Source: an uncultured bacterium (GTDB taxonomy: Bacteria; Patescibacteriota; Minisyncoccia; UBA6257; 2-01-FULL-56-20). Taken from it: DNA of 64,000 nt. Location of the stretch: the NCBI GenBank assembly GCA_963844965.1, contig CAWJQC010000007.1, forward strand, positions 32,001 through 96,000. Direction: 5' to 3'. The notes under the pieces were generated by a model. The model saw nothing but the letters and a program-made list of their open reading frames with translations, was not told the DNA's origin and searched no databases. How positions within the stretch are numbered: position 1 is the first letter of the stretch; each line of letters begins with the position of its first letter. Shown piece by piece: positions 265-55,773 of this stretch. Position numbers and translations under genes: made by a program.

Positions 265-1137
265 CTATTCACGAGAGAAAACAACCTGAGGGCGGAACCC
301 CAAGTCGTCGTCCCGTGCGGCAGGGCCATCCCAGTACACGTCGGAGAGGCCACCGTAGCCTGAGCTGCCGCCATCGAGGCGCCTCGCGCCCTTCTGGTAA
401 GAATCTTCAAACCATTCCCAGGTATTGGTATCGCCCCACTCGGGGTGATAGGCGTTGCCGATGAAGTTCCATTCAATGGCTCGCGGCAGGCGGAGACACT
501 CTTCGGGCACGTCCATTGCCTCCGCTATGGCTTTTTTCACTTCCGGCTTGTTCAGCTCGTCCCAGGAGATGTTGAAGCGGGAGCCTTTCGTCTCAAAGTC
601 CGTAATAATCTTCTTTTTCCTCAAGTCCTCCAAGACGGGTCTGAGAACGTCGTCCTTATATATTTGCTTGCCGCTCTCGTACTTCGGCTTCCCGCGGGTG
701 TCGACGAGAATCCAGGAGGCGGGGAGCTTCAGGGCGTCCTTCGGCAAATCGTCCTTTTTAACATCGGCATAAAATTCAATTCCCCAACCATCGGCATATT
801 TTTTGCCCGGCTTCTTTTTCCAACCAGGCAAATCGCGCTCTTCTGTTAGTTCTTCATCGGGCAAGTAATGGAGCTCGAAGCCCATTTCCTTCCACTTCTC
901 GTATCGTTCGGGTGTGATTTCTTCCGGCAGCGGTGGAACCTCAACGTCGTAGCCGAAGAATTCCCTGAGTTTCTCGGTTTCCTGTTCCATTAGTTCCCTG
1001 AACTCTGCCGAGGATTCGGGCGCTTTCCTTTTCTCCTTCTCCGCCTCGCCCAATGCTTTTTCCACCTTCTTCTGGACGGTGGTTTTGTACTGGTCGGGGT
1101 TATACTCTTCGTAGATTTTGTAACCGGGGAAGGGCAT
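265..1137 (-). CDS. DGR target protein, paralog 1 (C-terminal FGE-sulfatase/C-type-lectin-fold domain carrying the variable region)
   Basis: 290 aa. C-terminus ..CLRLPRAIEWNFIGNAYHPEWGDTNTWEWFEDSY..RRLDGG..LGFRPQVV matches the RLPxEAEWE / GNxWEW / RGG / LGFR motifs of the FGE/SUMF1 fold used by DGR targets. The last ~35 codons are VR1. The N-terminal 2/3 is shared with paralogs 2 and 3. Confidence 0.7.
   Translation of the reverse strand: MPFPGYKIYEEYNPDQYKTTVQKKVEKALGEAEKEKRKAPESSAEFRELMEQETEKLREFFGYDVEVPPLPEEITPERYEKWKEMGFELHYLPDEELTEERDLPGWKKKPGKKYADGWGIEFYADVKKDDLPKDALKLPASWILVDTRGKPKYESGKQIYKDDVLRPVLEDLRKKKIITDFETKGSRFNISWDELNKPEVKKAIAEAMDVPEECLRLPRAIEWNFIGNAYHPEWGDTNTWEWFEDSYQKGARRLDGGSSGYGGLSDVYWDGPAARDDDLGFRPQVVFSRE
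286..391 (-). repeat. DGR variable region VR1
   Basis: 106 bp matching the template repeat at 4576-4681 except at positions that are A in the template sense strand (T on the printed strand); ends with the GC-rich ctgagggcggaaccccaag 3' element. Confidence 0.75.
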
Positions 1138-1142
1138 GGGGG

Positions 1143-3164
1143 TTATAAGTCTTTAGTATATTGAAGAATAACTTTTTGAACGGCCCGCGGCAATTTATTG
1201 ATGTCTTCAATGACTTCCGCGTCGGGCTTGTAGGTTTCTTTCACAGCGGCCCCAGATTCCGTCATCCCGAGTCCCAAAACAATCACTCCTTTCTCGCGAA
1301 GGGCTTTGAGATTTTTTTGAACAAGCTCCGCGTTTTCGCTTTCGCCGTCCGAGAGCACCACGATTACCTTGCGCCTTATCTTTTCTCGAATCTGTCGCTC
1401 GTCTTCTGGCGTCAACGATTTCAATACCTCATCAAGCGATAGATAATCCGGCGTTCCGCCGCCCGCGTTGTGCATTTTCTTCCAAATTGCGATGCGGTCT
1501 TTTTCCGATAGGTCTGGCGAGAGTTTTTTGAGTTCAGCGTCCCCGAAGTCGCCGAACGCTCTCGTTTCGGTTCTCACGCCCAAGCCAACCGGCGTACCGC
1601 TTTCGTACTCGGCCTCCTCAATTTCTTTTTGGAAATCCGCAAGCGATTCCAAGAAGAGAAGCTTGCTCTTCCGGTCCATTTCCAATTTTGATCCCTCGTT
1701 CATGGAACCGGACAGGTCGTTGATCAGGGTCATGTCAAGCGCACCGTATCCTTCCTCCTCCCGTTCTTTGCGCTCGACTTCTCGGAATGCCCTCGGCTCG
1801 CCGCCGCTTTTTGATTCAATGTACGCTTCCGCGATCGCGCCACCTTCTATTTCCTCTCCTTCCCTCTGAAGTTGTGGCCGCACTTTCCAGCGCCGCCGCA
1901 ATCTCCTTGTCACCACTTGTTTGAACACTTCTCGGAGTTCGGCGATGAGCGGTGCGATTTCTTTATATTCATTCCGATAGCCAATTATGTCCTCAGGGCT
2001 TACATTATGCTCTTTGGCCCACTGTTCAAGGATGCTTTGATCAAGCGACGGCATTCCGCCCCGTTCTTTCACGATCGTCTCCATTGTTTTCATGATTTTC
2101 TCCTCGTCTTTCGCGGATAACGGCTCGGGGTGCACATCTTCGTAAGTTTTATATTGCTTCTTGAAATTTTTTTCCGCTTCTTTTCGCGCCGCGCTCTCGC
2201 TCCCCTTATCTTTTTTCTTGTCTTTCTCTTTCCCGCCCTCTTCCTCTTTGCCCTTGCCGGCCTCGGCTTCTTTTTTCTTTTTGAATTTGTCCCACCATTT
2301 TTTATCCTGCTTTTGCTCGCCTTGTCCCCCCTGCCCTTCTTGAGGTTGGCCTTCTCCGGCCTCTTCCTGCCCCTTCCCTTTTTTACCCTTACCTTTCTGC
2401 GTTTCTTTCTCCAGGTCCTTGCGATAGAGCTCCATATAAACCGGCTCGACAACCTGGCGCATAAGCCTGAAGCGATCGCGCGGCTCTATCGTAGGAGTGG
2501 TTACGAGATCCAAAATATCCGTCTTGTCGCCGCCGAAGCTTCTGAGCTTATCGAGCGCTTCTTGGGCTTCGGGACCCACCATAACCTTTTCATCGGGGAC
2601 CATCATCTGACGTATAAAGCCGTAGACGAACTGGACGTGGGCCGCCAGTTCTTGTTCTTGCCCGGTCTTCGGGTCTTCCAGGCGTCGGTAGTCCGTCGCC
2701 GGAAACATTTTCTCTTTATATAAAGTTCGGCGCGTCTCCTCCAAAAATGGTAGTTCGGCGACGATACGCCGATTACCAAGCACATCTTCAAAAATATTAT
2801 GAAGGATGTGGAGCTGCGGTTTTTGCTGGCTGTATCGCTTCGCTTCTTTGAGTATGAACTCGGGGTCTCTCAAGAGCTCGCCGTAATGAGCCATAAGTTC
2901 GTGGGTTGTCGCAAAAAGGGTTTCTTTGAGATTGTAGCCGCGCTCGATAAAAAAGTTAGGATCGTAAATTAGCCGACGGTTTTCAAAATCGAACGCCCAG
3001 CCGTTATTGCCCCTATCAAGCGTGATATCGCCGCGCATGCCGTACGCGCCGAGAATCTCGCCCTCTCTATCGAAAAACGCTTCAATTTCGGATGGCGGCG
3101 CCTCCTTTTTCTCAGCGAGGACGGTATTCTCCTCTGGCGGTTTTTCTGGCGAGAATTTAGTCAC
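1143..3164 (-). CDS. vWA-domain protein with N-terminal HExxH metallopeptidase-like motif and K/E/G-rich linker
   Basis: 673 aa. ATTHELMAH (HExxH) near the N-terminus. C-terminal DMTLINDLSGSM (MIDAS DxSGS) and VVLSDGES, typical of von Willebrand A domains. Long low-complexity KEG linker. Confidence 0.65.
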   Translation of the reverse strand: MTKFSPEKPPEENTVLAEKKEAPPSEIEAFFDREGEILGAYGMRGDITLDRGNNGWAFDFENRRLIYDPNFFIERGYNLKETLFATTHELMAHYGELLRDPEFILKEAKRYSQQKPQLHILHNIFEDVLGNRRIVAELPFLEETRRTLYKEKMFPATDYRRLEDPKTGQEQELAAHVQFVYGFIRQMMVPDEKVMVGPEAQEALDKLRSFGGDKTDILDLVTTPTIEPRDRFRLMRQVVEPVYMELYRKDLEKETQKGKGKKGKGQEEAGEGQPQEGQGGQGEQKQDKKWWDKFKKKKEAEAGKGKEEEGGKEKDKKKDKGSESAARKEAEKNFKKQYKTYEDVHPEPLSAKDEEKIMKTMETIVKERGGMPSLDQSILEQWAKEHNVSPEDIIGYRNEYKEIAPLIAELREVFKQVVTRRLRRRWKVRPQLQREGEEIEGGAIAEAYIESKSGGEPRAFREVERKEREEEGYGALDMTLINDLSGSMNEGSKLEMDRKSKLLFLESLADFQKEIEEAEYESGTPVGLGVRTETRAFGDFGDAELKKLSPDLSEKDRIAIWKKMHNAGGGTPDYLSLDEVLKSLTPEDERQIREKIRRKVIVVLSDGESENAELVQKNLKALREKGVIVLGLGMTESGAAVKETYKPDAEVIEDINKLPRAVQKVILQYTKDL

Positions 3165-3201
3165 GTTGTTTTGTTTATTATACCGCTTATACGCAAAAAA
3201 A

Positions 3202-4221
3202 TCAAATGATTTTCTTTATCATTTCCAGCCGCACCCCGCGAGACCGAGAATGCTTCACGAGCCCCAAATACGAGATGAAAGAATCTTTATTGAAACCGTT
3301 ATCCAATTTTTGGAGCATTCTCCGTTTTGTTTTTGTGCGCAAAATGCGGTGATGCGGAAAACAAACAAATCCGAGAAAATCTACGCCCTGATGATATTTT
3401 CTTATGGAAACTTTTTTGGGGTGCAGCTCGAGTTTGAGGTTTGCGTTAAGAAAATCGCTGATTTTTTCGATGTAGCTCGACAGAAGTTCCTTGTCCCTGT
3501 CCAAAATCACGAAATCATCGCAATAGCGCATATAATATTTTGCCCGCAAGATCGTTTTTACGAATTGATCGAGCTCATTCATGTAGATATTCGCGAAGAG
3601 TTGGCTCGTAAGGTTGCCGAGCGGCAACCCCTTGCCAGCTTCTTTGCTGAAACTGTCGATAATTATTTGGAAAAGGCTGAGGGCGCGCGGATCTTGTATT
3701 CGCCGCGCAAGAAGATTCTTCAATATCCCGTGGTCAATGGAGTTGAAAAAACTTTTGATGTCGCACTTCAGGGCCCAAACTGTTTTCGTGTTGTTTTTGG
3801 ATAATTTCCAGCCAAATTTGTGCAAGCGCTCGAGCGCGGCGTGAGCCCCCTTCTCGTCCCGGCAAGCGTAAGAATCAAAAATGAAGCGCAGATCGAATAT
3901 CGGCTCGATCACCCTGACGATCGCGTGATGTAAAACCCGGTCGCGAACCGGTGCTTTGTGGATGTGTCTTTTCTTCGGATCGAACACAAAAAACGATTTA
4001 TACGCGCCATGTTGATATTTTCCGTCCTTTAGCGTATAATGCAGGCAGAAAAGGTTATCTTCAAGATTGCGGGAAAATTCCATCACTTCCAGCTTCCGCG
4101 ATTTACCTCGTAAAAACTCATACCATGCAAACAACAAATTATTAGATGAAATAATGTTTTCATACACAACATGACTATCCAAACCGTCCCCGATAGAATG
4201 TTGGACCTCCCTATTTTCCAT
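3202..4221 (-). CDS. Diversity-generating retroelement reverse transcriptase
   Basis: RT motifs: ENIISSNNLLFAWYEFLRGKSRK (motif 0/1), KKRHIHKAPVRDRVLHHAIVRVIEPIF (motif 2), KSFFNSIDH (motif A), LPLGNLTSQLFANIYMNELD (motif B with the DGR-specific GxxxSQ instead of SP), YCDDFVI (YxDD). The ORF track starts at alt-start 4278; the ATG at 4221 fits DGR RT N-termini better. Confidence 0.8.
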   Translation of the reverse strand: MENREVQHSIGDGLDSHVVYENIISSNNLLFAWYEFLRGKSRKLEVMEFSRNLEDNLFCLHYTLKDGKYQHGAYKSFFVFDPKKRHIHKAPVRDRVLHHAIVRVIEPIFDLRFIFDSYACRDEKGAHAALERLHKFGWKLSKNNTKTVWALKCDIKSFFNSIDHGILKNLLARRIQDPRALSLFQIIIDSFSKEAGKGLPLGNLTSQLFANIYMNELDQFVKTILRAKYYMRYCDDFVILDRDKELLSSYIEKISDFLNANLKLELHPKKVSIRKYHQGVDFLGFVCFPHHRILRTKTKRRMLQKLDNGFNKDSFISYLGLVKHSRSRGVRLEMIKKII

Positions 4222-4551
4222 AAAACATACGATTTTATTATTGTATTTTCCAATTACGTCGTTAAGTTTCCCAAACACGATCGCTTCACTCTCGGCGCGA
4301 GGATAGAAAACACCGCCGTCGAACTCTTAATGCTTATCATGCGGGCGAATTACGGGCAAGCCGTAGCGCGCGTCGGTTTTTTAAACGAAGGAAGTATCCT
4401 GCTCGATATGCTCAAGGTATTCGTGCGGCTCGCGAAGGATAAGAAAGCTATACACCCGAATCAGTATTTAATGCTCGAGGAACGGTTGCAGGAAATAGGC
4501 CGCATGCTCGGCGGTTGGATAAAGTCCTCAAGTGCAAAAAGACCCGTGTGA
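4198..4551 (+). CDS. avd: Avd-like accessory variability determinant (four-helix-bundle protein)
   Basis: ~118 aa. ..FPKHDRFTLGARIENTAVELL..FLNEGSILLDMLKVFVRLAKD..LQEIGRMLGGWIKS closely resembles Bordetella bAvd (..GRILGSWIA..) and the TIGR02436 four-helix-bundle family. Opposite strand to the RT, 5' ends overlapping by ~24 nt. Confidence 0.6.
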   Translation: MLDLPIFHKTYDFIIVFSNYVVKFPKHDRFTLGARIENTAVELLMLIMRANYGQAVARVGFLNEGSILLDMLKVFVRLAKDKKAIHPNQYLMLEERLQEIGRMLGGWIKSSSAKRPV

Positions 4552-4563
4552 GCGGGTCTTTTT
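4536..4563. terminator. Bidirectional hairpin terminator between avd and TR
   Basis: aaaaagacccg-tgtgag-cgggtcttttt perfect palindrome with A/T runs on both sides. Confidence 0.5.
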
Positions 4564-4575
4564 GTGAGATACGAT

Positions 4576-4681
4576 CTGAGGGCGGAACCCCAAGTTGTCG
4601 TTCCGTTCGGCAGGGTCATCCCAGTTCACGTTGGAGAGGCCACCGTTGTCTGAGTTGCCGCCATCGAGGCGCCTCGTGCCC
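4576..4681 (-). repeat. DGR template repeat (TR)
   Basis: Not in a full-length gene. In the sense (minus) orientation it encodes GTRRLDGGNSDNGGLSNVNWDDPAERNDNLGFRPQ, with AAC/GAC codons exactly where the three VRs differ. Every VR/TR mismatch I can see is at a TR adenine. Confidence 0.8.
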
Positions 4682-4920
4682 GGTCCCAAGCCCATCTGTG
4701 TCCCAAACCATCCAAGGCAGCGGCAATTCGCAGAAAGCGTCTTGCCTGTATAAATATGGAGCGGTATTCCTTTGTTTAAAGGAAATCCGCATAAGTTTGG
4801 AGCACGTCGTTTCTCTCGTTTGTTGGGCGAACCGACGATCCGTAGATCCGGCTACATTAGCCCGCATAAAAAATTTACACCGAAATGCCCAAAGGAGCAA
4901 CAGCCCAATCCCCAAAGTTC

Positions 4921-5799
4921 CTACTCACGAGAGAAAACAACCTGAGGGCGGAACCCCAAGTCGTCGTTCCGTCCGGCAGGGCCATCCCAGTCCACGTGGG
5001 AGAGGCCACCGCGGCCTGAGTGGCCGCCATCGAGGCGCCTCGCGCCCTTTTGGTAAGAGTCCTCGAACCATTCCCAGGTATTCGTCTCACCCCACTTGGG
5101 ATAATAAAGATTTCCCATATAGTTCCATTCAATAGCTCTTGGAAGTCTCAGGGATTCGGGCGGAACGTCGAGTGCCTCCGCGATGGCTTTTTTCACTTCC
5201 GGCTTGTTCAGCTCGTCCCAGGAGATATTATAGCGAGAGTTCTTGACTTTGAAATCCGTGATTATCTTTTTCTTTCTCAAATCCTCAAGTGTCTCTGCCA
5301 GTATGTCTTCGGCATATTTTTGTTTGCCGTCTTGATAGTTGGGCTTTTCGCGGCTGTCCACGAGAATCCACGAGGCAGGTAGTTTGAGGGTGTCTTTCGG
5401 AAGATTGCCGTTCTTTACCTCGTCAAAAAACTCGATACCCCAACTCTTATCCGGAGTGTATCGCGTGCCCGGCTTCTTTTTCCAACCAGGCAAATCGCGC
5501 TCTTCTGTTAGCTCTTCATCGGGCAAGTAATGAAGTTCAAGCCCCATTTCTTTCCACTTTTCGTATCGTTCTGGTGTGATTTCTTCCGGCAGCAGTGGAA
5601 CCTCAACGTCGTAGCCGAAGAATTCCCTGAGTTTCTCGGTTTCCTGCTCCATTAGTTCCCTGAACTCTGCCGAGGATTCGGGTGCTTTCCTTTTCTCCTT
5701 CTCCGCCTCGCCCAATGCTTTTTCCACCTTCTTTTGAACGGTGGTTTTGTACTGGTCGGGGTTATACTCTTCGTAGATTTTGTAACCGGGGAAGGGCAT
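4921..5799 (-). CDS. DGR target protein, paralog 2
   Basis: 292 aa; same architecture as 265..1137; C-terminal VR2. Confidence 0.7.
   Translation of the reverse strand: MPFPGYKIYEEYNPDQYKTTVQKKVEKALGEAEKEKRKAPESSAEFRELMEQETEKLREFFGYDVEVPLLPEEITPERYEKWKEMGLELHYLPDEELTEERDLPGWKKKPGTRYTPDKSWGIEFFDEVKNGNLPKDTLKLPASWILVDSREKPNYQDGKQKYAEDILAETLEDLRKKKIITDFKVKNSRYNISWDELNKPEVKKAIAEALDVPPESLRLPRAIEWNYMGNLYYPKWGETNTWEWFEDSYQKGARRLDGGHSGRGGLSHVDWDGPAGRNDDLGFRPQVVFSRE
4942..5047 (-). repeat. DGR variable region VR2
   Basis: Aligned to TR; substitutions only at TR adenines. Confidence 0.75.
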
Positions 5800-5888
5800 G
5801 GTGTCAAATGAATGGTCTTATTTGTTTATTGTTATAAAATTTTTTTTGAAAGCCTACCAAAGAAACAAGAGAACAATTGTCAAAGTTC

Positions 5889-6737
5889 CTACTCACGAGA
5901 GAAAACAACCTGAGGGCGGAACCCCAAGCTGCCGAGCCGCTCGGCAGGGTCATCCCAGTCCACGTGGGAGAGGCCACCGAGGCCTGAGCCGCCGCCATCG
6001 AGGCGCCTCGCGCCCTTTTGGTAAGAATCTTCAAACCATTCCCAGGTATTGGTATCGCCCCACTCGGGGTGATAGGCGTTGCCGATAACGTTCCATTCAA
6101 TCGCTCGCGGCAGGCGGAGACACTCTTCGGGCACGTCCATTGCCTCCGCTATGGCCTTTTTGACTTCGGGCTTATTCAGTTCGTCCCAGGAGATGTTGAA
6201 GCGGGAGCCTTTCGTCTCAAAGTCCGTAATAATCTTCTTTTTCCTCAAGTCCTCTAAGACGGGTCTGAGGACGTCGTCCTTATATATTTGCTTGCCGCTC
6301 TCGTACTTCGGCTTCCCGCGGGTGTCGACGAGAATCCAGGCGTCGGGGAGCTTAGCAGCATCGGCAGGGATTTCGTTCGCCTCTAAGCGGCCATAAAACC
6401 AATCTCCAGGTTTCTTTTTCCACCCCGGGAAAGCGGCATCCTTCCTCATCTCTTCCGGGGGAAGGTAGTGCAATTCAAAACCCATCTCTTTCCATTTTTC
6501 ATAACGCTCGGGGGTAACTTCATCGGGTAAGGGCGGGACTTCAACCTCATGACCGAAGAAAGTGCTGAGAGATTCTGTCTCGCGATCTACCAGTTCCCGG
6601 AATTCCGCTGATTCCGGCGTCATTCTCCCTTTCTCCTTCTCCGCCTCGCCCAGTGCTTTTTCCACCTTCTTCTGGACGGTGGTTTTGTACTGGTCGGGGT
6701 TGTACTCTTCATAGATTTTGTAGCCGGGGAAGGGCAT
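5889..6737 (-). CDS. DGR target protein, paralog 3
   Basis: 282 aa; same N-terminal and C-terminal architecture; middle segment divergent; C-terminal VR3. Confidence 0.7.
   Translation of the reverse strand: MPFPGYKIYEEYNPDQYKTTVQKKVEKALGEAEKEKGRMTPESAEFRELVDRETESLSTFFGHEVEVPPLPDEVTPERYEKWKEMGFELHYLPPEEMRKDAAFPGWKKKPGDWFYGRLEANEIPADAAKLPDAWILVDTRGKPKYESGKQIYKDDVLRPVLEDLRKKKIITDFETKGSRFNISWDELNKPEVKKAIAEAMDVPEECLRLPRAIEWNVIGNAYHPEWGDTNTWEWFEDSYQKGARRLDGGGSGLGGLSHVDWDDPAERLGSLGFRPQVVFSRE
5910..6015 (-). repeat. DGR variable region VR3
   Basis: Aligned to TR; substitutions only at TR adenines. Confidence 0.75.
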
Positions 6738-6742: not shown

Positions 6743-8419
6743 TTATTCTTTACCTTGCCACGCACGTAGGGTCTTCGCCGCGAGTCCAGGCACCTTGAAA
6801 TCTTCCGGCTTGGTGTCTTTGAAGAATTTATTCGCCATAAAGACGCGGATCATGTTTTCCCTGTCTTTGCTCGCGCGTCCGCTGATTTCCGCCTTATGGA
6901 AGAACTCGCGGAGAACCACGTTTCCGAGCGGATCTTTGAAGCCGCCGGCCTTCCACGCCTTCATAATTTCAATCTGGTCCTTCAAGGTGATGACGAGTTC
7001 TCGAAACGCAAGGCGGTCGCTCTTTGACAAGCTTTCTTCCGCGCCCTCCCGCACCGAGAGCGTGAAATCTTCCTGAATTTTGCGGCAGGCGGCGGCAAAG
7101 CGCTTCAGCTCATCAACTTTTTGCCCTGCTTCCGCTTCGCTCCATTGAATGTTGCCGTGGCGGTCGGCGAGAACGGCGGTCAAAATCTGCAACGTTTCCG
7201 GAGCGATATACTGCCCTTCTTTATTTTTCTTGCCGAGGTCCAAGTAATGTATTTCCCGCGCCCCTGCGCCTCCGATGAAGCGGCGAAGGGTCGCGACGTC
7301 CAGCTCATAGCGCTGCTTATATCGTTCTGATTTCAAGTTTGCCGTTGCCATAATCGGCGCGCGGATCGGAATTTCTTCCCCGGTCACCGGATGCTTCCAT
7401 GCGTCGCCGACGCGTTTCTGAAGAAGATCGTGCAAGATCCCCGCGAATTCGTGGGGCATAAGGTTGACTTCGTCCAAGATCACCGGGCGTCCTTCTTTTT
7501 GCGCCTTTACGAATTCGGAATAGTCAAAAACCGTCTCGCCCCCTTTGAGCCCTCGGCTCCCTATGATTTGTGATTCTTTGATTTGTTCTTGAATGGGGAT
7601 TAGGGCTGGGTCTCTCCTTAAGTATCTTTCGGAAATATATTTTGCAAGCTGCGACTTTCCGGAACCGGTTTCGCCCTGGAAAAGAACCGGCGCACCCTGC
7701 ATCAAATCCGGAAGTATGGCTCGGATCAATTCCGTACGCGATTCCGTTTCGGCGAAGCTGTAACGTTCGAGGTCGCGCTGCATGCGTCTGATTCCTCGCC
7801 GCTCCAACATATCAATCGTTTCGGGGTCCAATTCAAACTTCTGTAATCTTTCTTGAAGCTCAATCTTCCGAGCCGCCATGTTCGCCAATTTCTTGCGTTC
7901 AATCGGACCGGGCGCTCGCCCCACTTTCTCGAAAAGCATCTGGAGCTTTTCTTCGGCAGAAGTTATTGCGCCAAGTTCTTTCTCCGCATGTTCGTATTCT
8001 AACGCTTTTGCGAGCGTCTGTTTTTGTCTTTCAAATTTTTCTTTGTAAGCACGCAGCACTTCTGGATTGCTTGCTAATTCTTTTATACGAGCGTCGTATT
8101 CGTGAAGCGTGGTTTCCTGAAATTCCGCTAATTCTGGATCGAGCGAAAGAGCCTCAAGATGTGCGGCCATTTCTTTTTCGCCTTTGGCTTTGAGATCGGC
8201 GAGTTCCGTTTTGCTTTTCACGCCCCAGGCCTCATTCACATGTTTTGCGACCTCCGCGCGAGAAGCCGAAAACTCGGCGAGTTCGCTGACTCGCGATTCT
8301 AATTCTTCAGGCGACAGGGTTTTTTCTTTTTTCCCGGATTTTTGCGCGCCCTCCTTCTCAAGAACGATTTCGGGGGTAGTTTTTACCTCGGGAACATGTG
8401 GTATTTTTTCTGGGGACAT
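6743..8419 (-). CDS. AAA+ ATPase (AAA_5/MoxR-like) with N-terminal coiled-coil region
   Basis: 558 aa. Walker A GETGSGKS, Walker B VILDEVNL, ATANL sensor-like segment, arginine finger region RRF. Confidence 0.7.
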   Translation of the reverse strand: MSPEKIPHVPEVKTTPEIVLEKEGAQKSGKKEKTLSPEELESRVSELAEFSASRAEVAKHVNEAWGVKSKTELADLKAKGEKEMAAHLEALSLDPELAEFQETTLHEYDARIKELASNPEVLRAYKEKFERQKQTLAKALEYEHAEKELGAITSAEEKLQMLFEKVGRAPGPIERKKLANMAARKIELQERLQKFELDPETIDMLERRGIRRMQRDLERYSFAETESRTELIRAILPDLMQGAPVLFQGETGSGKSQLAKYISERYLRRDPALIPIQEQIKESQIIGSRGLKGGETVFDYSEFVKAQKEGRPVILDEVNLMPHEFAGILHDLLQKRVGDAWKHPVTGEEIPIRAPIMATANLKSERYKQRYELDVATLRRFIGGAGAREIHYLDLGKKNKEGQYIAPETLQILTAVLADRHGNIQWSEAEAGQKVDELKRFAAACRKIQEDFTLSVREGAEESLSKSDRLAFRELVITLKDQIEIMKAWKAGGFKDPLGNVVLREFFHKAEISGRASKDRENMIRVFMANKFFKDTKPEDFKVPGLAAKTLRAWQGKE

Positions 8420-8860: not shown

Positions 8861-9421
8861 ATGGAAGAGCAAACAAAGAAATGCAGGGAGTGCAAGTCGG
8901 ACATTCCGGCTGGCGCCAAGCGATGTCCCAGCTGCCGAGCGGATCAAAGGAACTGGTTGATGCGCCATAAAGCCTTAACTGTCGTGGTGATATTTATAGC
9001 GCTCATTATCATAGCCATGGTTGCTGGTAGTAATAGCAATAACCCTAAACAGGTCGGCAATAACAGCCAGCCAGTCCCATCATCCCAAGAGCAGACGTTC
9101 AAGGTCGGCGATCACGTCCAGATGGGAAGCGATATCATAACGGTGAACAGCGCGGAGTTTTCGAGCGGTACAGAATTCGCAAAGCCAGCCGCTGGGAACA
9201 CCTGGTTAGACGTCAATCTGACGATACAAAACACGGACAACGCCCAGCAGTATATAACGACCATGGGACAGATGTTTGTTAAGGATTCCGACGGCAACAG
9301 TTACAACGTTTCGCCCACGGACAAAGAATTACAAAATCCATCGCTTGGCATGGACGGCCCGATTCTTGCCAACAGCAAAAAGACCGCTTGGGTAGGGTTT
9401 GTAAAGGATAGGTTTCTTTAG
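8861..9421 (+). CDS. Zinc-ribbon / single-TM / DUF4352-like extracellular domain protein, 3' end running into the IS3 terminus
   Basis: N-terminal CxxC..CxxC, TM helix, then a beta-rich domain. The last codons (..VKDRFL*) are encoded by the IS terminal repeat, so the native C-terminus is probably lost. Confidence 0.55.
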   Translation: MEEQTKKCRECKSDIPAGAKRCPSCRADQRNWLMRHKALTVVVIFIALIIIAMVAGSNSNNPKQVGNNSQPVPSSQEQTFKVGDHVQMGSDIITVNSAEFSSGTEFAKPAAGNTWLDVNLTIQNTDNAQQYITTMGQMFVKDSDGNSYNVSPTDKELQNPSLGMDGPILANSKKTAWVGFVKDRFL

Positions 9422-9456
9422 ACAGTGATTCGACGGCTTTTTGCCGTTTTTTTTCG

Positions 9457-10239
9457 TTAAGCCGCAATCTTCTCGGCAAACACGGACGGCGGCATCTTGA
9501 GGGCGGAGTGGATCCGCGTGTGGTTGTACTGCCACAAGGTGCTGTAGATCTCCGCCACGAGCTCGCCGAAGGTCCCGAACCGGTTGGGATCACCGAGGTC
9601 AATCTTGAACTTGTCATAGAACGATTCCTGGTAGCCGTTTTCCCATGGGGCACCGGGCCGCGACCGCGAGATCGTGATGCCACAGTCCCCCAGTGTATCG
9701 GTGAACGCTCGTGCCTTGTACTCGCTGCCGTTGTCCGAATGGAAGATGACCGGATGCGGATGGTGGAAAAGCGCGTTGGCCAGGGTCTGTATCGTGAGGG
9801 GCGATCCTTTCCGCAACGCCACATGGACGCCCATCAATCGTCTCGTGAAAAGATCGAGTATCGTGGACACGTACACTTTCTTGCCGCGATACAGGAACTC
9901 CGTGAAATCGGTTGCCCAGACGTGGTTCGCGTACGAGGGCATGATGGCAAGTAAGAGGTTCGGAAAGGCCCGCGATGCCTTTGATTTCCGGTATTTCCTG
10001 CCTCGCCTCCGGTACGGCCTTATGCCGAAGATTCGCATGACGCGCTGCGCTCGCGGACGGCTCACGCCCAGAGCTTGTCCCAAGCGCCGGGAACCGTATG
10101 CCGGATGGCGCTGCAATTCTTCTTCCATGCGGATCTTGAGCGCCCAATCTTTCTTGTCCTGCCGTGATACGTAGTAGAGCGATGCCCGCGAGACGCCCAT
10201 GGCCCGCGCCATGGCGGACTTGTTCCGCTTTTCCGTCAA
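9457..10239 (-). CDS. IS3-family transposase OrfB (DDE integrase core)
   Basis: 260 aa; ..WATDFTEF..HSDNGSEY..YNHTRIHSAL.. rve-type DDE motifs. Confidence 0.85.
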   Translation of the reverse strand: MTEKRNKSAMARAMGVSRASLYYVSRQDKKDWALKIRMEEELQRHPAYGSRRLGQALGVSRPRAQRVMRIFGIRPYRRRGRKYRKSKASRAFPNLLLAIMPSYANHVWATDFTEFLYRGKKVYVSTILDLFTRRLMGVHVALRKGSPLTIQTLANALFHHPHPVIFHSDNGSEYKARAFTDTLGDCGITISRSRPGAPWENGYQESFYDKFKIDLGDPNRFGTFGELVAEIYSTLWQYNHTRIHSALKMPPSVFAEKIAA

Positions 10240-10499
10240 TTCTTTTTTTGGGCCTGGGAGAGCTTCACGGTGAGCTCGCCCACCACTTCAAACAGCTCCC
10301 TGTTCTGCTTCTGGAGACGGCTGAACTCGCCCCAGGAAGGGACGCCCGATGCTCCTGCGCCTAGCCAATTGTAGATGGTGGACTCGTGCAAACCGTGGTC
10401 CTTCGCAGCCTGCGCTACGGGGACTCCTTCTTCCTTCACCCGGCGGAGGATGTCCGCCTTCACTTCCTTCGCAATCCGATGCCCTTTTTTGTTGCTCAT
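10236..10499 (-). CDS. IS3-family transposase OrfA (HTH)
   Basis: 87 aa; helix-turn-helix; ends QAQKKN* at the frameshift heptamer. Confidence 0.85.
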   Translation of the reverse strand: MSNKKGHRIAKEVKADILRRVKEEGVPVAQAAKDHGLHESTIYNWLGAGASGVPSWGEFSRLQKQNRELFEVVGELTVKLSQAQKKN

Positions 10500-10531
10500 G
10501 ACACAATGGTAGTTTGTTTCGACCTTTGTGT

Positions 10532-11794
10532 CTAAATTATCCTATCCGGGTCAATGGTTAAGTCGCAGAATGCCGGTTCCAATTCGACCGTATAGACCCG
10601 GCGCTTAAGTTGTTCACCTGCAATCAGCGTGCTGCCGCTGCCGCAAAAGCTGTCCAAGATAATGTCTCCCGGACGGCTGCACCTGCGGATCGCTTTTTCA
10701 TGGAGCGCTGGCGGCTTGGACGTAGCGTGCTGATATTCGTTGCCCGCGAGTCGCTTCACGAGCCAGATGTCAAGCAAATCCAGGATGTCGTCAATGAGCC
10801 TGTTGCCCGTGGAGAGTTCCTTGTTCTGGATCTCGTTGAGCGACTGGAGGCCCTTCGCGAGATACGGCTTGCCGCGGACGCCGTAGACGGCGGGTTCATA
10901 GCACTTCGAGAAAGCGACCTCGGGAGTGGGGTTCTGGCCGTTTTTAATCCAGAGGCAGACGCGCTTGTTTTCAAGGCCGAGTTCCGCGTAGAGTGTCTGC
11001 AGGAGCCAGATATAACGCTGGTCGCACCAATAAAAGACATGCATATCGTCTTTCGCGACGGCGAGGGCGTTTACGAGGCTCTTCCGGAGAAACTCTTTGT
11101 ACTCGTCGTCAGTCCGCGTGTCGTTGACGCTACCGCCGTAGTTGGCATGTCCGCCGACGCCCTTCGCATAATCCACGCCGCCCTTCAGGTTATAGACCGG
11201 ATCGGAATAAATGACGGATGCCTTCTCGCCGCCAAAAAGCTTTTTGAGGACGGCGGGGTCTGTTGAATCGCCGCAAGCTAATTTATGAGGGCCTAGCGAG
11301 AATATGTCGCCGAGCTTTGTTTTCGGTTTTTTGATCTTGGCGAGCTCGCGTTCGACATTGAACTCATCGTCCTGAACTTCCGCGATGTCGTCCCAGAGGT
11401 GCGACAGCTCTTCGTCTTTAAATCCGATTTCAAGCAATAGCTCGGTGTCGAAGGTGCGTAATAGCTCGTATGACCAGTCTCCGCGCACGGCATTTGAGGT
11501 GAGCAAGTATTGCTCAAACTCGTGTTTCGTCAATTTCCGGTTCGGCACGCGCACTTCTATTTCTTCGCTCCCTCGGCCAAGGAGCTGAAGGGCCTTCAAC
11601 CTTTGATGACCAGCTATGATCGTGCCGTCCGTGTCGATCGCGGGAAGTTCTACGACGTTGAATTTCGTCAGGCTCTTCTTAAGGGCCTCGAGCTGAGCCT
11701 CGCCGATGGTGCGGGGATTTTTGGAAAACGGGACGAGTGAGTTAATCGCTCTCTTCTCCGTGTGCCAGATTAGCGATATGTGTTTTCTAGCCAT
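10532..11794 (-). CDS. ParB-like nuclease domain fused to an N6-adenine/N4-cytosine DNA methyltransferase (beta-class, PF01555-like)
   Basis: 420 aa. N-terminal ParB/Srx-like region (..IIAGHQRLKA..). MTase motif IV variant SDPVYN. C-terminal motif I ILDSFCGSGSTLIAGEQLKRRVYTVELEP. The last 8 codons are encoded by the IS IRL. Confidence 0.7.
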   Translation of the reverse strand: MARKHISLIWHTEKRAINSLVPFSKNPRTIGEAQLEALKKSLTKFNVVELPAIDTDGTIIAGHQRLKALQLLGRGSEEIEVRVPNRKLTKHEFEQYLLTSNAVRGDWSYELLRTFDTELLLEIGFKDEELSHLWDDIAEVQDDEFNVERELAKIKKPKTKLGDIFSLGPHKLACGDSTDPAVLKKLFGGEKASVIYSDPVYNLKGGVDYAKGVGGHANYGGSVNDTRTDDEYKEFLRKSLVNALAVAKDDMHVFYWCDQRYIWLLQTLYAELGLENKRVCLWIKNGQNPTPEVAFSKCYEPAVYGVRGKPYLAKGLQSLNEIQNKELSTGNRLIDDILDLLDIWLVKRLAGNEYQHATSKPPALHEKAIRRCSRPGDIILDSFCGSGSTLIAGEQLKRRVYTVELEPAFCDLTIDPDRII

Positions 11795-13147: not shown

Positions 13148-13795
13148 ATGGATAAAGAAAAGCAAGAACAAGAAATTGAAGAGACTGCGTCGACAAATCA
13201 ATCCAAGAAGCCACGCAAATTAAAAGCGCGTTTACTGCGCCTTTATTACCTCGCCGTTTGGAACAGTACCCTCCGCAAAGATCGCTGCGTACAGTGGTTT
13301 CGGCGATATGCGCACGCCCTACGCGAAATTTTTATCTTAATAGTCACGATCGTTGCGGCTTGGTCTATCACGCAATTCATCGACATTTCTTCAATTTCGA
13401 CGAATAACTTGGCGAGTTGTTTTGTCGCGGTTGGTGCGATGATCGGTGGCGTCATAGCCATCGTGTTTTCGCTCTCGATTTTTGCCCAGCAAAGCAGCGC
13501 CGATCTTTATTCATCCCAGTATTTCGAGGTGTATGCCCACGATTGGAAAGAGAAGATGACGTATTCGTTAATTGTGCTCATAACGATTGCGTTCTTCGTC
13601 GGCGGAATCATTTTTTACGGCAACGCGAACTTGGCCACGGTCTATAAGTATGTCGGTGTGTATGCATCGCTGATCTTAATAGGAACCGTCTTCATTTTGG
13701 TCGATTGGCAGTACCGAAACGTAACGTCGAAGGCTAATCCCATTAAAGCGCTCAACTTTCTCGAAAGGCAATCTGACCCGGATAGGATAATTTAG
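13148..13795 (+). CDS. Membrane protein, C-terminus running into the IS terminus (probably truncated)
   Basis: 215 aa; several hydrophobic helices; the last codons ..DPDRII* are encoded by the IS IRL. Confidence 0.45.
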   Translation: MDKEKQEQEIEETASTNQSKKPRKLKARLLRLYYLAVWNSTLRKDRCVQWFRRYAHALREIFILIVTIVAAWSITQFIDISSISTNNLASCFVAVGAMIGGVIAIVFSLSIFAQQSSADLYSSQYFEVYAHDWKEKMTYSLIVLITIAFFVGGIIFYGNANLATVYKYVGVYASLILIGTVFILVDWQYRNVTSKANPIKALNFLERQSDPDRII

Positions 13796-13827
13796 ACACA
13801 AAGGTCGAAACAAACTACCATTGTGTC

Positions 13828-14091
13828 ATGAGCAACAAAAAAGGGCATCGGATTGCGAAGGAAGTGAAGGCGGACATCCTCCGCCGGGTGAAGGAAGAAG
13901 GAGTCCCCGTAGCGCAGGCTGCGAAGGACCACGGTTTGCACGAGTCCACCATCTACAATTGGCTAGGCGCAGGAGCATCGGGCGTCCCTTCCTGGGGCGA
14001 GTTCAGCCGTCTCCAGAAGCAGAACAGGGAGCTGTTTGAAGTGGTGGGCGAGCTCACCGTGAAGCTCTCCCAGGCCCAAAAAAAGAATTGA
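13828..14091 (+). CDS. IS3 transposase OrfA
   Basis: Identical to the other copies. Confidence 0.85.
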   Translation: MSNKKGHRIAKEVKADILRRVKEEGVPVAQAAKDHGLHESTIYNWLGAGASGVPSWGEFSRLQKQNRELFEVVGELTVKLSQAQKKN

Positions 14092-14870
14092 CGGAAAAGC
14101 GGAACAAGTCCGCCATGGCGCGGGCCATGGGCGTCTCGCGGGCATCGCTCTACTACGTATCACGGCAGGACAAGAAAGATTGGGCGCTCAAGATCCGCAT
14201 GGAAGAAGAATTGCAGCGCCATCCGGCATACGGTTCCCGGCGCTTGGGACAAGCTCTGGGCGTGAGCCGTCCGCGAGCGCAGCGCGTCATGCGAATCTTC
14301 GGCATAAGGCCGTACCGGAGGCGAGGCAGGAAATACCGGAAATCAAAGGCATCGCGGGCCTTTCCGAACCTCTTACTTGCCATCATGCCCTCGTACGCGA
14401 ACCACGTCTGGGCAACCGATTTCACGGAGTTCCTGTATCGCGGCAAGAAAGTGTACGTGTCCACGATACTCGATCTTTTCACGAGACGATTGATGGGCGT
14501 CCATGTGGCGTTGCGGAAAGGATCGCCCCTCACGATACAGACCCTGGCCAACGCGCTTTTCCACCATCCGCATCCGGTCATCTTCCATTCGGACAACGGC
14601 AGCGAGTACAAGGCACGAGCGTTCACCGATACACTGGGGGACTGTGGCATCACGATCTCGCGGTCGCGGCCCGGTGCCCCATGGGAAAACGGCTACCAGG
14701 AATCGTTCTATGACAAGTTCAAGATTGACCTCGGTGATCCCAACCGGTTCGGGACCTTCGGCGAGCTCGTGGCGGAGATCTACAGCACCTTGTGGCAGTA
14801 CAACCACACGCGGATCCACTCCGCCCTCAAGATGCCGCCGTCCGTGTTTGCCGAGAAGATTGCGGCTTAA
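14088..14870 (+). CDS. IS3 transposase OrfB
   Basis: Identical to the other copies; -1 frame relative to orfA. Confidence 0.85.
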   Translation: MTEKRNKSAMARAMGVSRASLYYVSRQDKKDWALKIRMEEELQRHPAYGSRRLGQALGVSRPRAQRVMRIFGIRPYRRRGRKYRKSKASRAFPNLLLAIMPSYANHVWATDFTEFLYRGKKVYVSTILDLFTRRLMGVHVALRKGSPLTIQTLANALFHHPHPVIFHSDNGSEYKARAFTDTLGDCGITISRSRPGAPWENGYQESFYDKFKIDLGDPNRFGTFGELVAEIYSTLWQYNHTRIHSALKMPPSVFAEKIAA

Positions 14871-14929
14871 CGAAAAAAAACGGCAAAAAGCCGTCGAATC
14901 ACTGTCTAAAGAAACCTATCCTTTACAGG

Positions 14930-20330: not shown

Positions 20331-20348
20331 GTTTAGTGTGAAATAAAC

Positions 20349-54539: not shown

Positions 54540-54644
54540 TCCAAGTTTTACATTTTGAGGGAGATGGAGCGGTTGGAAATATCTAAATGTAAAGGATAGG
54601 TTTCTTTAGACAGTGATTCGACGGCTTTTTGCCGTTTTTTTTCG

Positions 54645-55427: not shown

Positions 55428-55687
55428 TTCTTTTTTTGGGCCTGGGAGAGCTTCACGGTGAGCTCGCCCACCACTTCAAACAGCTCCCTGTTCTGCTTCT
55501 GGAGACGGCTGAACTCGCCCCAGGAAGGGACGCCCGATGCTCCTGCGCCTAGCCAATTGTAGATGGTGGACTCGTGCAAACCGTGGTCCTTCGCAGCCTG
55601 CGCTACGGGGACTCCTTCTTCCTTCACCCGGCGGAGGATGTCCGCCTTCACTTCCTTCGCAATCCGATGCCCTTTTTTGTTGCTCAT
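55424..55687 (-). CDS. IS3 transposase OrfA
   Basis: Identical to the other copies. Confidence 0.85.
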   Translation of the reverse strand: MSNKKGHRIAKEVKADILRRVKEEGVPVAQAAKDHGLHESTIYNWLGAGASGVPSWGEFSRLQKQNRELFEVVGELTVKLSQAQKKN

Positions 55688-55741
55688 GACACAATGGTAG
55701 TTTGTTTCGACCTTTGTGTCTAAATTATCCTATCCGGGTCA

Positions 55742-55773
55742 ACCTTTGTGTCTAAATTATCCTATCCGGGTCA
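55742..55773 (-). repeat. Tandem duplicate of the terminal 32 bp (IRL) of the IS3 element
   Basis: acctttgtgtctaaattatcctatccgggtca repeats 55710-55741 exactly. Confidence 0.7.

Follow-up and report, generated by a model that had tools for sequence, protein, structure and literature searches.

A three-target diversity-generating retroelement within a conserved AAA_5 ATPase/VWA gene cluster

Diversity-generating retroelements (DGRs) vary the end of a protein, and the locus described here raises the question of which machinery such a variable protein may serve. At its core this locus is an ordinary DGR, and it is the ATPase/VWA context that is informative. The reading we favour, to which we give a probability of roughly 0.65, is that of a complete DGR of the Patescibacteria type, with a permuted DGR RNA and with three targets that would act as exchangeable recognition subunits of an AAA_5/VWA machine. 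The window (the whole 64-kb stretch of DNA that was analysed) is supported as coming from a CPR/Patescibacteria bacterium, in line with the CPR-like organism proposed in a preliminary description of this DNA.

The reverse transcriptase, Avd and the adenine-specific repeats

The core of the element and its targets comprise the following features:

3202-4221, minus strand: DGR reverse transcriptase (RT), 339 aa from a putative start ATG at 4221, in an ORF that reaches 4278
4171-4551, plus strand: avd, an ORF of 126 aa, oriented against the RT, the template repeat and the targets
4576-4681, minus strand: template repeat (TR), 106 nt with 23 adenines
265-1137, minus strand: target gene T1, 290 aa, with variable repeat VR1 (286-391) at its 3' end
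4921-5799, minus strand: target gene T2, 292 aa, with VR2 (4942-5047) at its 3' end
5889-6737, minus strand: target gene T3, 282 aa, with VR3 (5910-6015) at its 3' end

The RT holds the motifs GNLTSQ and YCDDFVI and matches the RVT_1 profile (2.6e-21). Its best PDB match is the RT of the BPP-1 DGR (bRT, 8ub7; E 4.6e-46), with group II RTs at about 1e-20, and group_II_RT_mat gave 147 bits, under its 300-bit cut-off. All of this agrees with the DGR type initially assigned to the enzyme. Avd was recognised by NF033474 DivGenRetAVD (88.6 bits, cut-off 80) and PF22296 bAvd (7.6e-21). Up to 51 nt at the 5' end of its gene also belong to the RT ORF, and the inverted position is shared by nine other loci (L008, L010, L011, L024, L025, L027, L028, L029 and L031). 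Neither the inverted avd nor the structured RNA found 5' of the TR had been noted in the preliminary description.

The three VRs align to the TR without gaps, and realignment returned the same coordinates and amino acid strings as the preliminary description, which had also stated that every mismatch lies at a TR adenine. The tabulation bears this out. The 100-nt core of the repeat shows 9, 9 and 12 mismatches, every one at a TR adenine, and a 6-nt 5' extension adds one further A-to-G change per VR, so that over three VRs of 106 nt each all mismatches (33/33) fall at TR adenines. VR1, for instance, departs from the TR at 10 positions, and the three VRs differ from one another. Variable positions comprise 16 of the 23 adenines and none of the 83 other bases (P = 6.6e-14 for all 16 being adenines by chance). 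A 16-mer and a 19-mer of the repeat are each present in exactly four copies in the 64-kb window, where 0.08 and 0.00 copies would be expected; the window therefore holds one TR and three VRs, and the claim of three paralogous targets co-diversified from a single template stands. Multi-target DGRs are already known.

Most TR adenines (21/23) occupy codon position 1 or 2, and the TR holds six AAC codons, whose mutagenesis cannot yield a stop codon. The computed repertoire per target is about 2.8e12 protein variants. All four repeats end 3' in an identical GC-rich sequence, beyond which they part, an arrangement resembling IMH/IMH*.

Structured RNA around the template repeat

A region of about 165 nt 5' of the TR folds into a domain whose strands also reach the flanks of the TR:

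4698-4863, minus strand: structured 5' domain of the DGR RNA
4863-4825, minus strand: P1 hairpin
4815-4808, minus strand: strand a, GAGAAACG, followed by a 2-nt linker
4805-4795, minus strand: 5' strand of P3
4790-4761, minus strand: P4 hairpin
4760-4747, minus strand: near-invariant single strand, CAUAUUUAUACA
4746-4722, minus strand: P5 hairpin
4708-4698, minus strand: 3' strand of P3, 11 nt just ahead of the TR
4566-4573, minus strand: a', CGUAUCUC, 8 nt that pair with strand a
4536-4563, minus strand: stem-loop and U-run (AAAAAGACCCG-CUCACA-CGGGUCUUUUU), directly 3' of the TR flank
4864-4920, minus strand: 3' flank of T2, with a TTTGG-type motif array (ACTTTGG..ATTGGG..CCTTTGG..ATTTCGG)

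The central element is a continuous strand about 110 nt upstream of the TR, GAGAAACG plus 2 nt plus GUGCUCCAAAC, whose pairing partners are the 8 nt that follow the TR and the 11 nt that precede it; a' sets in 2 nt past the end of the TR/VR homology. The domain is conserved in 10 other loci and occurs in Paceibacteria, Kaiserbacteria, Vogelbacteria, Portnoybacteria and Falkowbacteria, among other loci. An unfitted MAFFT alignment of 8 lineages, folded with RNAalifold, showed compensatory changes at 30/40 pairs. Across 11 loci, with the a' registers of two of them (L027 and L028) picked by eye, 93.8% of the cells of a/a' and P3 are paired versus 25-51% with slid partners, and the covariation is 0.744 versus 0.258 in shuffled alignments (0/500) and 0.05-0.20 with slid partners. 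Compensatory pairs make up 10/11 of P3 and 4/8 of a/a', a short helix whose central position is unpaired in 6/11 sequences. P1, P4 and P5 were recovered both from the unfitted alignment and from the single-sequence MFE fold, which returned all helices (z -3.8). Judged by this covariation, the helices of the DGR RNA exist; their roles as template:primer and stop duplexes are suggested by analogy with the phage.

In the proposed mechanism, a discrete RNA of ~330 nt (4863 to about 4536, minus strand) would be made, consisting of the structured 5' domain, the 106-nt TR, the 8-nt 3' flank and the terminal stem-loop. The RT-Avd complex would copy the TR into cDNA with misincorporation at the 23 adenines, and this cDNA would replace the homologous 3' ends of the three paralogous genes, giving each target some 1e12 versions of a binding face of the C-type-lectin/FGE fold. 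The helix between strand a and the 8 nt after the TR would be the counterpart of the template:primer duplex, and P3, which includes the 11 nt before the TR, that of the stop duplex. This topology agrees with the published cryo-EM account of the phage RNA, which describes the primer strand, 2 nt, and then the stop-duplex strand. Next come a hairpin, the conserved single strand and another hairpin, which would take the places of the phage stop stem-loop, thumb ring and RT-binding stem. The stem-loop at 4536-4563, also recovered by the MFE fold, reads as a two-way terminator in common with avd, and it is a candidate Avd-binding stem-loop, since in the phage the stem-loop that binds Avd is found just 3' of the TR. 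L010, L011, L024, L028 and L029 hold a stem-loop of differing sequence at the equivalent place.

It is possible, though we consider it doubtful, that the 5' domain is instead a leader, a regulatory element or a promoter-proximal structure, and that the priming elements are to be sought in another place, such as the antisense-avd region. The shortness of a/a' and the derivation of function from topology alone leave room for this, as do the stem-loops and upstream/downstream pairings that Handa et al. assigned to CPR DGRs under the canonical layout. However, the strand just ahead of the TR already belongs to P3, with its covarying pairs; a' starts where the TR/VR homology stops; the hairpin 3' of a' leads into a U-run terminator; and the stem-loop, conserved single strand and long stem-loop after the stop strand repeat the order of the phage RNA. 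Besides, the analysis of Handa et al. spanned 40 nt on the upstream side of the TR and 100 nt on its downstream side, and the 5' domain was therefore outside their view. No Rfam family matched the domain, and no description of it in CPR DGRs was found in the literature searched, so that the arrangement is probably undescribed.

Directly before P1, an AT-rich stretch, TGTAAATTTTTTAT, separates the hairpin from the motif array in the T2 flank. The stretches 3' of T1 (about 200-264) and 3' of T3 (about 5830-5888) are homologous to this T2 flank, which may act as a target-site element or as promoter for the DGR RNA.

The target proteins and the AAA_5/VWA cluster

The targets had been attributed to the FGE-sulfatase/C-type-lectin fold. 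A confident AF2 model of T1 (pLDDT 90.6) shows this fold, although a Pfam search of the targets matched no family, PF03781 included. On the strength of the model, the VR class termed 'unknown' in Wu et al. falls within the FGE/C-type-lectin fold. The divergence noticed in the middle segment of the paralogs is real, and the paralogs are recombination mosaics. In 90%-identity orthologue clusters from other samples, VR codons vary at 11/25 and 12/25 columns, versus 11/268 and 6/256 elsewhere, and in the T2 cluster variation is almost confined to them. The N-terminus of T1-T3 is very hydrophilic and hydrophobic stretches are absent (the highest Kyte-Doolittle 19-residue mean is 0.33); hence, judged by hydropathy alone, the targets have no transmembrane or signal-like segment.

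Two further genes are interleaved with the targets:

1143-3164, minus strand: VWA673, 673 aa, with a C-terminal MIDAS-type VWA domain
6743-8419, minus strand: AAA558, an AAA_5 ATPase (MoxR class, midasin/NorQ-like)

In VWA673 the DxSxS motif is formed by D483/S485/S487, and the conserved N-terminal domain has an invariant H88-E89-x3-H93; the VWA domain is closest to the midasin MIDAS and NorD. AAA558 has an N-terminal extension of ~230 aa, Walker A (GETGSGKS) and Walker B (VILDEV) motifs, a match to PF07728 (1.2e-17) and PDB matches to midasin (4.2e-13) and NorQ (5e-7); it is 90% identical to its homologue in L001, 67% to that in L031 and 55% to that in L024. The AAA_5 and VWA genes, targets and DGR core occur together in the window, L008, the L010 group, L024, L029, L031 and L001 (where an RT remnant stands for the core). 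The cluster is conserved, and gene fusion within it is recurrent: AAA_5::target fusions occur in L004/L011, L010 and L029, and 9/10 long family members tested carry the target domain in fusion with an AAA_5 ATPase. Many members of the target family, those of L025 and L027 among them, stand alone or are joined to other domains, with AAA/VWA not nearby. Domain profile searches of the cluster found no effector domain.

Under the favoured reading, T1-T3 would be exchangeable hypervariable recognition subunits of AAA558 and VWA673, docking via their conserved N-terminal ~87 residues. Gene neighbourhood and fusion suggest this physical or functional coupling, which may serve defence-like sensing or the remodelling of a variable ligand. 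An intracellular role with AAA_5/VWA is more likely because the targets have no hydrophobic stretch, the cluster is interleaved and the fusion recurs; T1-T3 are, by the same token, more likely soluble and intracellular.

The preliminary description had instead proposed surface or binding proteins that tune how the CPR cell attaches to its host. CPR bacteria are regarded as episymbionts, DGRs in other cellular organisms often target surface proteins (Roux et al. 2021, PMC8144416), and the predicted variable domain is a ligand-binding fold; nevertheless, the hydropathy of T1-T3, the conserved operon-like cluster that they share with a cytoplasmic ATPase and a VWA protein, and the AAA_5 fusions make this improbable, and the clade-2 targets of CPR DGRs equally show no recognisable or membrane domains (Roux et al. 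2021, PMC8144416). Somewhat less remote, but still rather unlikely, is that AAA558 and VWA673 form an unrelated NorQ/NorD- or CobS/CobT-like chaperone pair next to which the DGR merely settled. The two proteins are 55-67% identical across lineages where the RT is 48-62% identical, which fits a housekeeping pair; VWA673 homologues are widespread in Patescibacteria, and AAA/VWA genes are missing from the vicinity of some DGRs in the same RT clade. However, the interleaved order (AAA-T-...-VWA-T) persists in at least 6 Patescibacteria lineages despite rearrangement, even in L031, where the DGR core is inverted and the targets keep only their N-terminal ~87 residues, joined to a different variable domain, beside the same AAA/VWA cluster. 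The fusions speak against chance adjacency too, as does the survival of cluster and target genes in relatives that lost the DGR core. This loss, in both close and distant relatives, is also what might suggest a recently inactivated fossil whose adenine-only differences record past activity: L001/L009 keep a 68-aa RT remnant with neither TR nor avd, and L005/L006 only the first part of the RNA as a truncated relic. Such decay appears unlikely here, where the catalytic motifs, Avd, TR, RNA helices and IMH-like ends are all intact, the VRs are mutually different, and 3 x 106 nt hold no non-adenine difference though the paralogs diverge elsewhere. The element is probably active, as far as one assembled sequence indicates.

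Relation to known systems

The BPP-1 DGR (mtd-avd-TR-Sp-brt) resembles this element in its RT family, Avd, adenine-specific transfer from TR to a C-terminal C-type-lectin fold, AAC-rich TR and IMH-like GC-rich 3' end, and in two adjacent duplexes that bracket the TR from one common strand with a 2-nt linker, putatively in circular permutation here. In contrast to BPP-1, avd is inverted between TR and RT, the structured RNA lies 5' rather than 3' of the TR, three cellular targets that are not viral receptor-binding proteins replace a single phage tail fibre, and a TTTGG-type motif array, instead of a GC-rich cruciform, follows the VRs.

The CPR DGRs are also among the closest known systems (see also Paul et al. 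2017). The gene order is the one that Wu et al. 2018 (PMC5758913) call architecture B3, TR-(avd inverted)-RT; by best matches the RT falls into clade 2 as defined by Roux et al. 2021 (PMC8144416), and thousands of Patescibacteria RTs are 50-60% identical to it. Midasin/AAA-fused targets were already recorded as UVR4 (Wu et al. 2018, PMC5758913), and a 'CLec fused to AAA ATPase' is cited by Dore et al. 2024 (PMC10907252). Here, however, the ATPase is a separate gene and a MIDAS-VWA gene belongs to the conserved cluster, a partner for which no mention in CPR DGRs was found in the literature searched.

A MoxR ATPase, a vWA/MIDAS protein and a DGR-diversified FGE/C-type-lectin domain likewise share one neighbourhood in the MoxR-vWA ternary conflict systems whose FGS domains are varied by DGRs (Kaur et al. 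2020, PMC7159879; Dore et al. 2024, PMC10907252), with the TR local in some and elsewhere in others. These systems differ in that their variable domain sits on the vWA protein, whereas in the present cluster and its relatives it forms small separate proteins or an ATPase fusion; their RTs belong to clade 5 and their hosts are multicellular, whereas a CPR-clade RT and a reduced-genome CPR host are found here; and the present cluster has no VMAP/third component, peptidase, TIR or effector domain. An AAA_5 motor with a MIDAS adaptor is also common to midasin/Rea1, NorQ-NorD, CbbQ-CbbO and CobS-CobT, although the link to a hypervariable lectin fold is not a feature of those characterised pairs, and VWA673 is set apart from them by its unique N-terminal domain with HExxxH.

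The retroelement, its template and its targets

DGRs are unusually common in CPR bacteria, and the locus described here is very probably a bona fide one with three targets (T1, T2 and T3). The minus strand of the window carries every DGR element except avd, which is encoded on the plus strand.

Features of the DGR locus and the adjoining genes (window coordinates)
265-1137, minus strand: target gene T1, an ORF whose 3' end aligns with the TR
1143-3164, minus strand: VWA673, a 673-aa MIDAS-type VWA protein
3202-4221 (up to 4278), minus strand: RT ORF; RVT_1 match, GNLTSQ and YCDD
4171-4551, plus strand: avd; NF033474 88.6 bits (cut-off 80), PF22296 7.6e-21
4576-4681, minus strand: template repeat (TR); ungapped alignment with the last ~106 nt of the three target ORFs
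4698-4863, minus strand: structured RNA 5' of the TR
4921-5799, minus strand: target gene T2, an ORF whose 3' end aligns with the TR
5889-6737, minus strand: target gene T3, an ORF whose 3' end aligns with the TR
6743-8419, minus strand: AAA558, a 558-aa AAA_5 ATPase

The preliminary description of this locus had recognized a DGR RT by its SQ motif, and this assignment is borne out by the presence of GNLTSQ and YCDD and by the best solved relative of the protein, which is the RT of the Bordetella phage (bRT, 8ub7; E 4.6e-46), in an alignment that takes in LTSQLFANIY and YCDD. A group II intron or retron identity was rejected, because bRT is far nearer, by some 25 orders of magnitude, than group II/retron-type RTs (1e-20), and because the score against group_II_RT_mat (147 bits) is under the 300-bit cut-off. 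The avd gene, absent from that description, was found with the NF033474 and PF22296 profiles. The order of TR (4681-4576, minus), avd (4171-4551, plus) and RT (4221-3202, minus) corresponds to architecture B3, TR-(avd inverted)-RT, which makes up 90% of the CPR set of Wu et al. 2018 (PMC5758913). Homologues of the RT number in the thousands, and those with a named source are all annotated as Patescibacteria; one cassette, near-identical at ~87%, carries the label Candidatus Paceibacteria, and another, at 50% identity, that of Candidatus Kaiserbacteria. The DGR core is an ordinary member of the CPR DGR clade, correctly identified from the outset and, judging by its sequence, intact in every part examined.

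With avd and RT diverging, the 5' ends of the two ORFs, whose true starts are uncertain, overlap by up to 51 nt (window 4171-4221). Among the related loci from other genomes and metagenomes (L001-L031), the overlap is the same in L008, ~33 nt in L010, 15 nt in L031, and nonexistent in L025 and L027. The RT call of the source record, of 293 aa, sidesteps it.

As proposed from the sequence, the 106-nt TR aligns without gaps to three variable repeats (VR1, 286-391; VR2, 4942-5047; VR3, 5910-6015). Mismatches to the TR within a 100-nt core number 9, 9 and 12 in the three VRs, each of them at a TR adenine, and a 6-nt 5' extension adds one A-to-G change per VR. Over the three VRs, 33 of 33 mismatches fall at adenines and none of the 83 non-adenine positions differs; 16 of the 23 TR adenines are variable (chance probability 6.6e-14). 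The claims that all mismatches lie at TR adenines, and that a single TR serves three co-diversified paralogous targets, stand on these counts, with all three VRs differing from the TR at adenines only. Short words of the repeat occur exactly four times in the 64-kb window, which leaves no further VR in it. Codon positions 1 or 2 hold 21 of the 23 adenines, the AAC codons of the TR (n=6) cannot give rise to a stop codon, and the repertoire computed from the TR adenines amounts to ~2.8e12 proteins per target. A GC-rich 19-mer is identical at the end of all four repeats, and directly past it they diverge (VR GTTGTTTTCTC, TR ATCGTATCTC), a pattern that fits 3' ends formed by a putative IMH in the VRs and by a differing IMH* in the TR.

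A C-type-lectin/FGE-sulfatase fold had also been attributed to the target C-termini. The predicted fold is indeed of this kind, with the VR at the C-terminus, but no sequence-level match of T1-T3 to PF03781 (FGE-sulfatase) was found. Searches of T1-T3 against Pfam, NCBIfam (E<=0.01) and PADLOC returned no family match, and the target family profile gave noise only against PDB sequences (E>0.1). The 85 close homologues of the targets are all hypothetical proteins of Patescibacteria; with a profile, the family extends to 795 clusters at 50% identity, and a single-protein scan of genome contigs with a target returned four loci only. Hypervariability in the family alignment falls exactly on the codons with TR adenines. 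Two orthologue clusters at 90% identity, compiled from different samples, have three or more residues in 11/25 and 12/25 of their VR columns, against 11/268 and 6/256 columns outside the VR, a variation that indirectly suggests that such elements are active in nature. The paralogues, which the preliminary description saw to differ in a middle segment, are recombination mosaics, T1 nearly matching T2 over nt 1-300 (286/300 identical) and T3 over nt 421-780 (346/360 identical).

A structured RNA 5' of the template repeat

A non-coding stretch of 240 nt separates T2 from the TR, and its conservation extends to distant loci. Folding with RNAalifold of four sequences, and then of an unfitted MAFFT alignment of eight lineages, gave layouts that agree. 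From 5' to 3', the RNA consists of a P1 hairpin, the 8-nt strand a (GAGAAACG), a 2-nt linker, the 5' strand of P3, P4, a single strand, P5, and the 3' strand of P3. P3 is a helix of 11-12 bp whose 3' strand ends 16 nt ahead of the TR, and the single strand between P4 and P5 is near-invariant (CAUAUUUAUACA). Strand a pairs with a', a stretch of 8 nt that starts 2 nt past the end of the TR/VR homology, on the other side of the TR.

These helices are shown by covariation. In block alignments of 11 sequences, anchored on sequence motifs independently of pairing (the a' register of L027 and L028 being the exception), 93.8% of the cells of a/a' and P3 are paired, and compensatory changes appear in 10/11 pairs of P3 and 4/8 of a/a' (together 14/19). 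The 2-nt linker is present in all 11. The covariation score of 0.744 was reached in 0/500 shuffles, which gave 0.258, and falls to 0.05-0.20 when the partners are slid. These helices also form when the window sequence is folded by itself (-122 kcal/mol, z -3.8). Past the 3' end of a' come only a stem-loop with its U-run, which also serves as the terminator of avd, and then antisense avd; other lineages hold a stem-loop of different sequence at the same place. The region has no family match in Rfam, and a search of viral contigs with the RNA motif pattern gave no match. The same pattern was found in 12 loci of metagenome contigs, seven of them relatives of L010/L011, while the other five (L012, L018, L020, L021, L023) were discarded as spurious GC-rich matches. 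L029 carries the start of the DGR RNA (the P1 and strand a region) a second time, at ~6030-6130, after the second target and downstream of the RT.

In the phage RNP, one strand of Sp forms the template:primer duplex with the TR 3' end and, 2 nt later, pairs with the segment directly upstream of the TR into the stop duplex; from there it runs into a stem-loop, a single-stranded thumb ring and an RT-binding stem; the Avd-binding stem-loop is located just 3' of the TR. The structured Sp of BPP-1, of ~140 nt, lies immediately 3' of the TR, where it supplies the primer and binds the RT. In contrast, the window shows 3' of its TR only 2 nt, the 8-nt a', the stem-loop, the U-run and antisense avd, and its conserved structure lies 5' of the TR. 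Both RNAs share two adjacent duplexes that bracket the TR and in which a single uninterrupted strand, with a linker of 2 nt, provides one side (a/a' and P3 in the window). The CPR RNA would retain the elements of the phage RNA, and their order relative to one another, but with the pairing strand ahead of the TR, on its 5' side. It would be a circular permutation of the phage RNA, a reading that is moderately probable.

According to this analogy, from which the assignment of the helices to priming and stopping is inferred, the primer strand, the stop-duplex strand, the stop stem-loop, a 'thumb ring'-like strand and the RT-binding stem of the B3 RNA would all be located 5' of the TR. In the BPP-1-type RNA, priming occurs in cis from the 2'-OH of a spacer adenosine; here, the cDNA would start at a nucleotide lying ~230 nt upstream of the template 3' end, for which the G that closes strand a and the A after it are candidates. 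The analysis of Handa et al. was confined, for each TR, to 40 nt on its upstream and 100 nt on its downstream side, and a review describes the structured part of the DGR RNA as 'trailing'. If the priming and stop elements are permuted, a survey restricted to sequence 3' of the TR overlooks the functional RNA in the largest clade of cellular DGRs, and rebuilding or engineering the compact CPR DGRs (339-aa RT, 126-aa Avd, ~330-nt RNA) would need the 5' domain. This domain is the newest part of the finding, and it belongs to the whole B3 class, not to the window locus alone.

The ATPase and VWA genes associated with the targets

T3 is preceded by AAA558, whose nearest solved sequences are midasin and NorQ. 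The same cluster is found again in related loci, in several arrangements.

Gene order in related loci (T, target; AAA, AAA_5 ATPase; ::, fusion)
L001/L009: AAA-T-(RT remnant)-VWA-T-T
L008: T-TR-(avd)-RT-VWA-T
L010, L014, L017, L019, L022 (Kaiserbacteria): AAA::T fusion-T-TR-(avd)-RT-VWA
L024: RT-VWA-AAA
L029 (Falkowbacteria): CobT_C-type VWA, AAA::T fusion, RNA/TR, (avd), RT, T
L031: RT/avd inverted relative to T-AAA-T-VWA-T

The T proteins of L031 have only the first ~87 residues in common with T1 and hold another variable domain, which indicates that the N-terminal module travels with the cluster. Among the best 150 representatives of the target family, 11 members have at least 600 aa, and in 9 of the 10 tested members of this size AAA_5 is located upstream of the target domain.

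In the preliminary description, the targets were taken for surface proteins that tune attachment. This role is not supported, because T1-T3 lack hydrophobic segments, as do AAA558 and VWA673, and because of the conserved cluster and the fusions with AAA_5. A putative intracellular role together with the AAA_5/MIDAS pair is better supported, and a functional coupling of the targets with the ATPase/VWA pair is, on balance, probable. Fusions of CPR targets to AAA/midasin were already reported in Wu 2018 (PMC5758913), and in Paul 2017 as cited by Dore. No description of a VWA partner or of a split arrangement for CPR DGRs was found in the literature searched.

MoxR-vWA systems linked to DGR-diversified FGS domains have been described in multicellular bacteria (Kaur 2020, PMC7159879; Dore 2024, PMC10907252). 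Like the MoxR-vWA ternary conflict system of Kaur 2020, the window encodes a MoxR-class AAA+ ATPase and a vWA protein with an intact MIDAS. However, ternary systems comprise a third component (VMAP, iSTAND etc.) and an effector (peptidase, TIR, nuclease), usually on the vWA protein, whereas the window cluster, which consists of AAA558, VWA673, T1-T3, RT and Avd only, has neither. No effector family was identified in it by Pfam, NCBIfam or PADLOC, models that a very divergent VMAP could escape. Moreover, the FGS domain of ternary systems is fused to the vWA component, while in the window the variable domain is found on separate proteins of 282-292 aa, and in relatives of the locus it is fused to the ATPase and not to the vWA protein. 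Since the third component and the effectors are missing, the cluster is read as one that works like a MoxR-vWA recognition system, and not as a member of that family.

The boldest reading links two claims, namely that the B3 RNA is a circular permutation of the phage RNA and that the diversified lectin-fold targets serve a split midasin-like AAA_5/MIDAS machine as interchangeable subunits for recognition; it is put forward tentatively, with a probability of about 0.4. If true, it would amount to hypervariable recognition inside the cells of a non-multicellular organism with a reduced genome, and would explain why CPR DGR targets have no membrane features. Roux et al. 2021 (PMC8144416) ask whether these targets are truly non-membrane proteins, and the locus and its relatives would offer a testable answer: soluble lectin-fold targets tied by gene order and repeated fusion to a midasin/NorQ-like ATPase and a MIDAS adaptor. 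Should the core claim alone hold, the locus is one more ordinary multi-target CPR DGR.

Residues 1-250 of VWA673 contain H88-E89-x3-H93, E126 and D127, invariant across 30 homologues. This N-terminal domain has no match in Pfam or among PDB sequences, and may be an unrecognised metal-binding or peptidase-like module. At L003 (ENA ERZ25039519 contig_64901), a target gene follows a C-terminal fragment of a VWA gene; the contig also carries a full cytochrome c oxidase operon and several split genes, a combination that is unusual for CPR and suggests a frameshift-rich long-read assembly or a chimera.

Target flanks, decayed loci and other elements of the window

Every target of the family is followed, within 3-30 nt of its stop codon, by an array of two to four (C/T)TTTGG with 8-9-nt spacing and then by an AT-rich stretch. 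These arrays are located at ~200-264, 4864-4920 and ~5830-5888 in the window, and also appear in L001, L004, L005, L006, L008, L010, L025 and L029. No GC-rich cruciform of the phage type was found in the 3' flanks that carry them. Such an array may serve as a target-site element in retrohoming, or as promoter region for the DGR RNA. That it is a genome-wide motif was rejected, as strict pairs are rare in the window, with one alone at a target, and the arrays are target-associated.

Several relatives have lost part of the element. L001/L009 conserve three diversified VRs and a 68-aa RT fragment between T and VWA (L001 6764-6967), with no TR and no avd. The 'lone' targets of L005, L006 and L007 were considered as evidence against the linkage of DGR and ATPase and discarded as such, because behind each lie, in this order, P1, strand a, the first part of P3 and a terminator, a truncated RNA relic (L006 11020-11150; L005 11200-11330), indicating that the DGR core was deleted there. 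Together, RT remnants and RNA relics indicate that DGR cores have been repeatedly lost, leaving the targets frozen.

Between the AAA_5 gene and a DUF4352 gene of this Patescibacteria genome lies a full-length LOOT RNA (Rfam RF03000; 8667-8787, plus strand), with 83 bits against a gathering score of 46.4. The motif does not appear in the main text of Weinberg et al. 2017. An insertion sequence of ~1.15 kb with an rve-type integrase is present in four 100%-identical copies (9400-10553, 13774-14927, 54587-55748 and 58627-59788) that form two inverted pairs, one bracketing an N6_N4 DNA methylase (10532-11794) and two ORFs, and the other a ResIII restriction/helicase protein (55942-58650). By their layout, these are two composite-transposon-like units, ~45 kb apart. 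The LOOT motif is otherwise not known outside unclassified metagenomic sequence. Finally, three diverged direct repeats of ~206 nt (70-85% identity; 19579-19784, 20341-20546 and 21254-21459) fall in consecutive ORFs, and so look like another small paralogous gene family.
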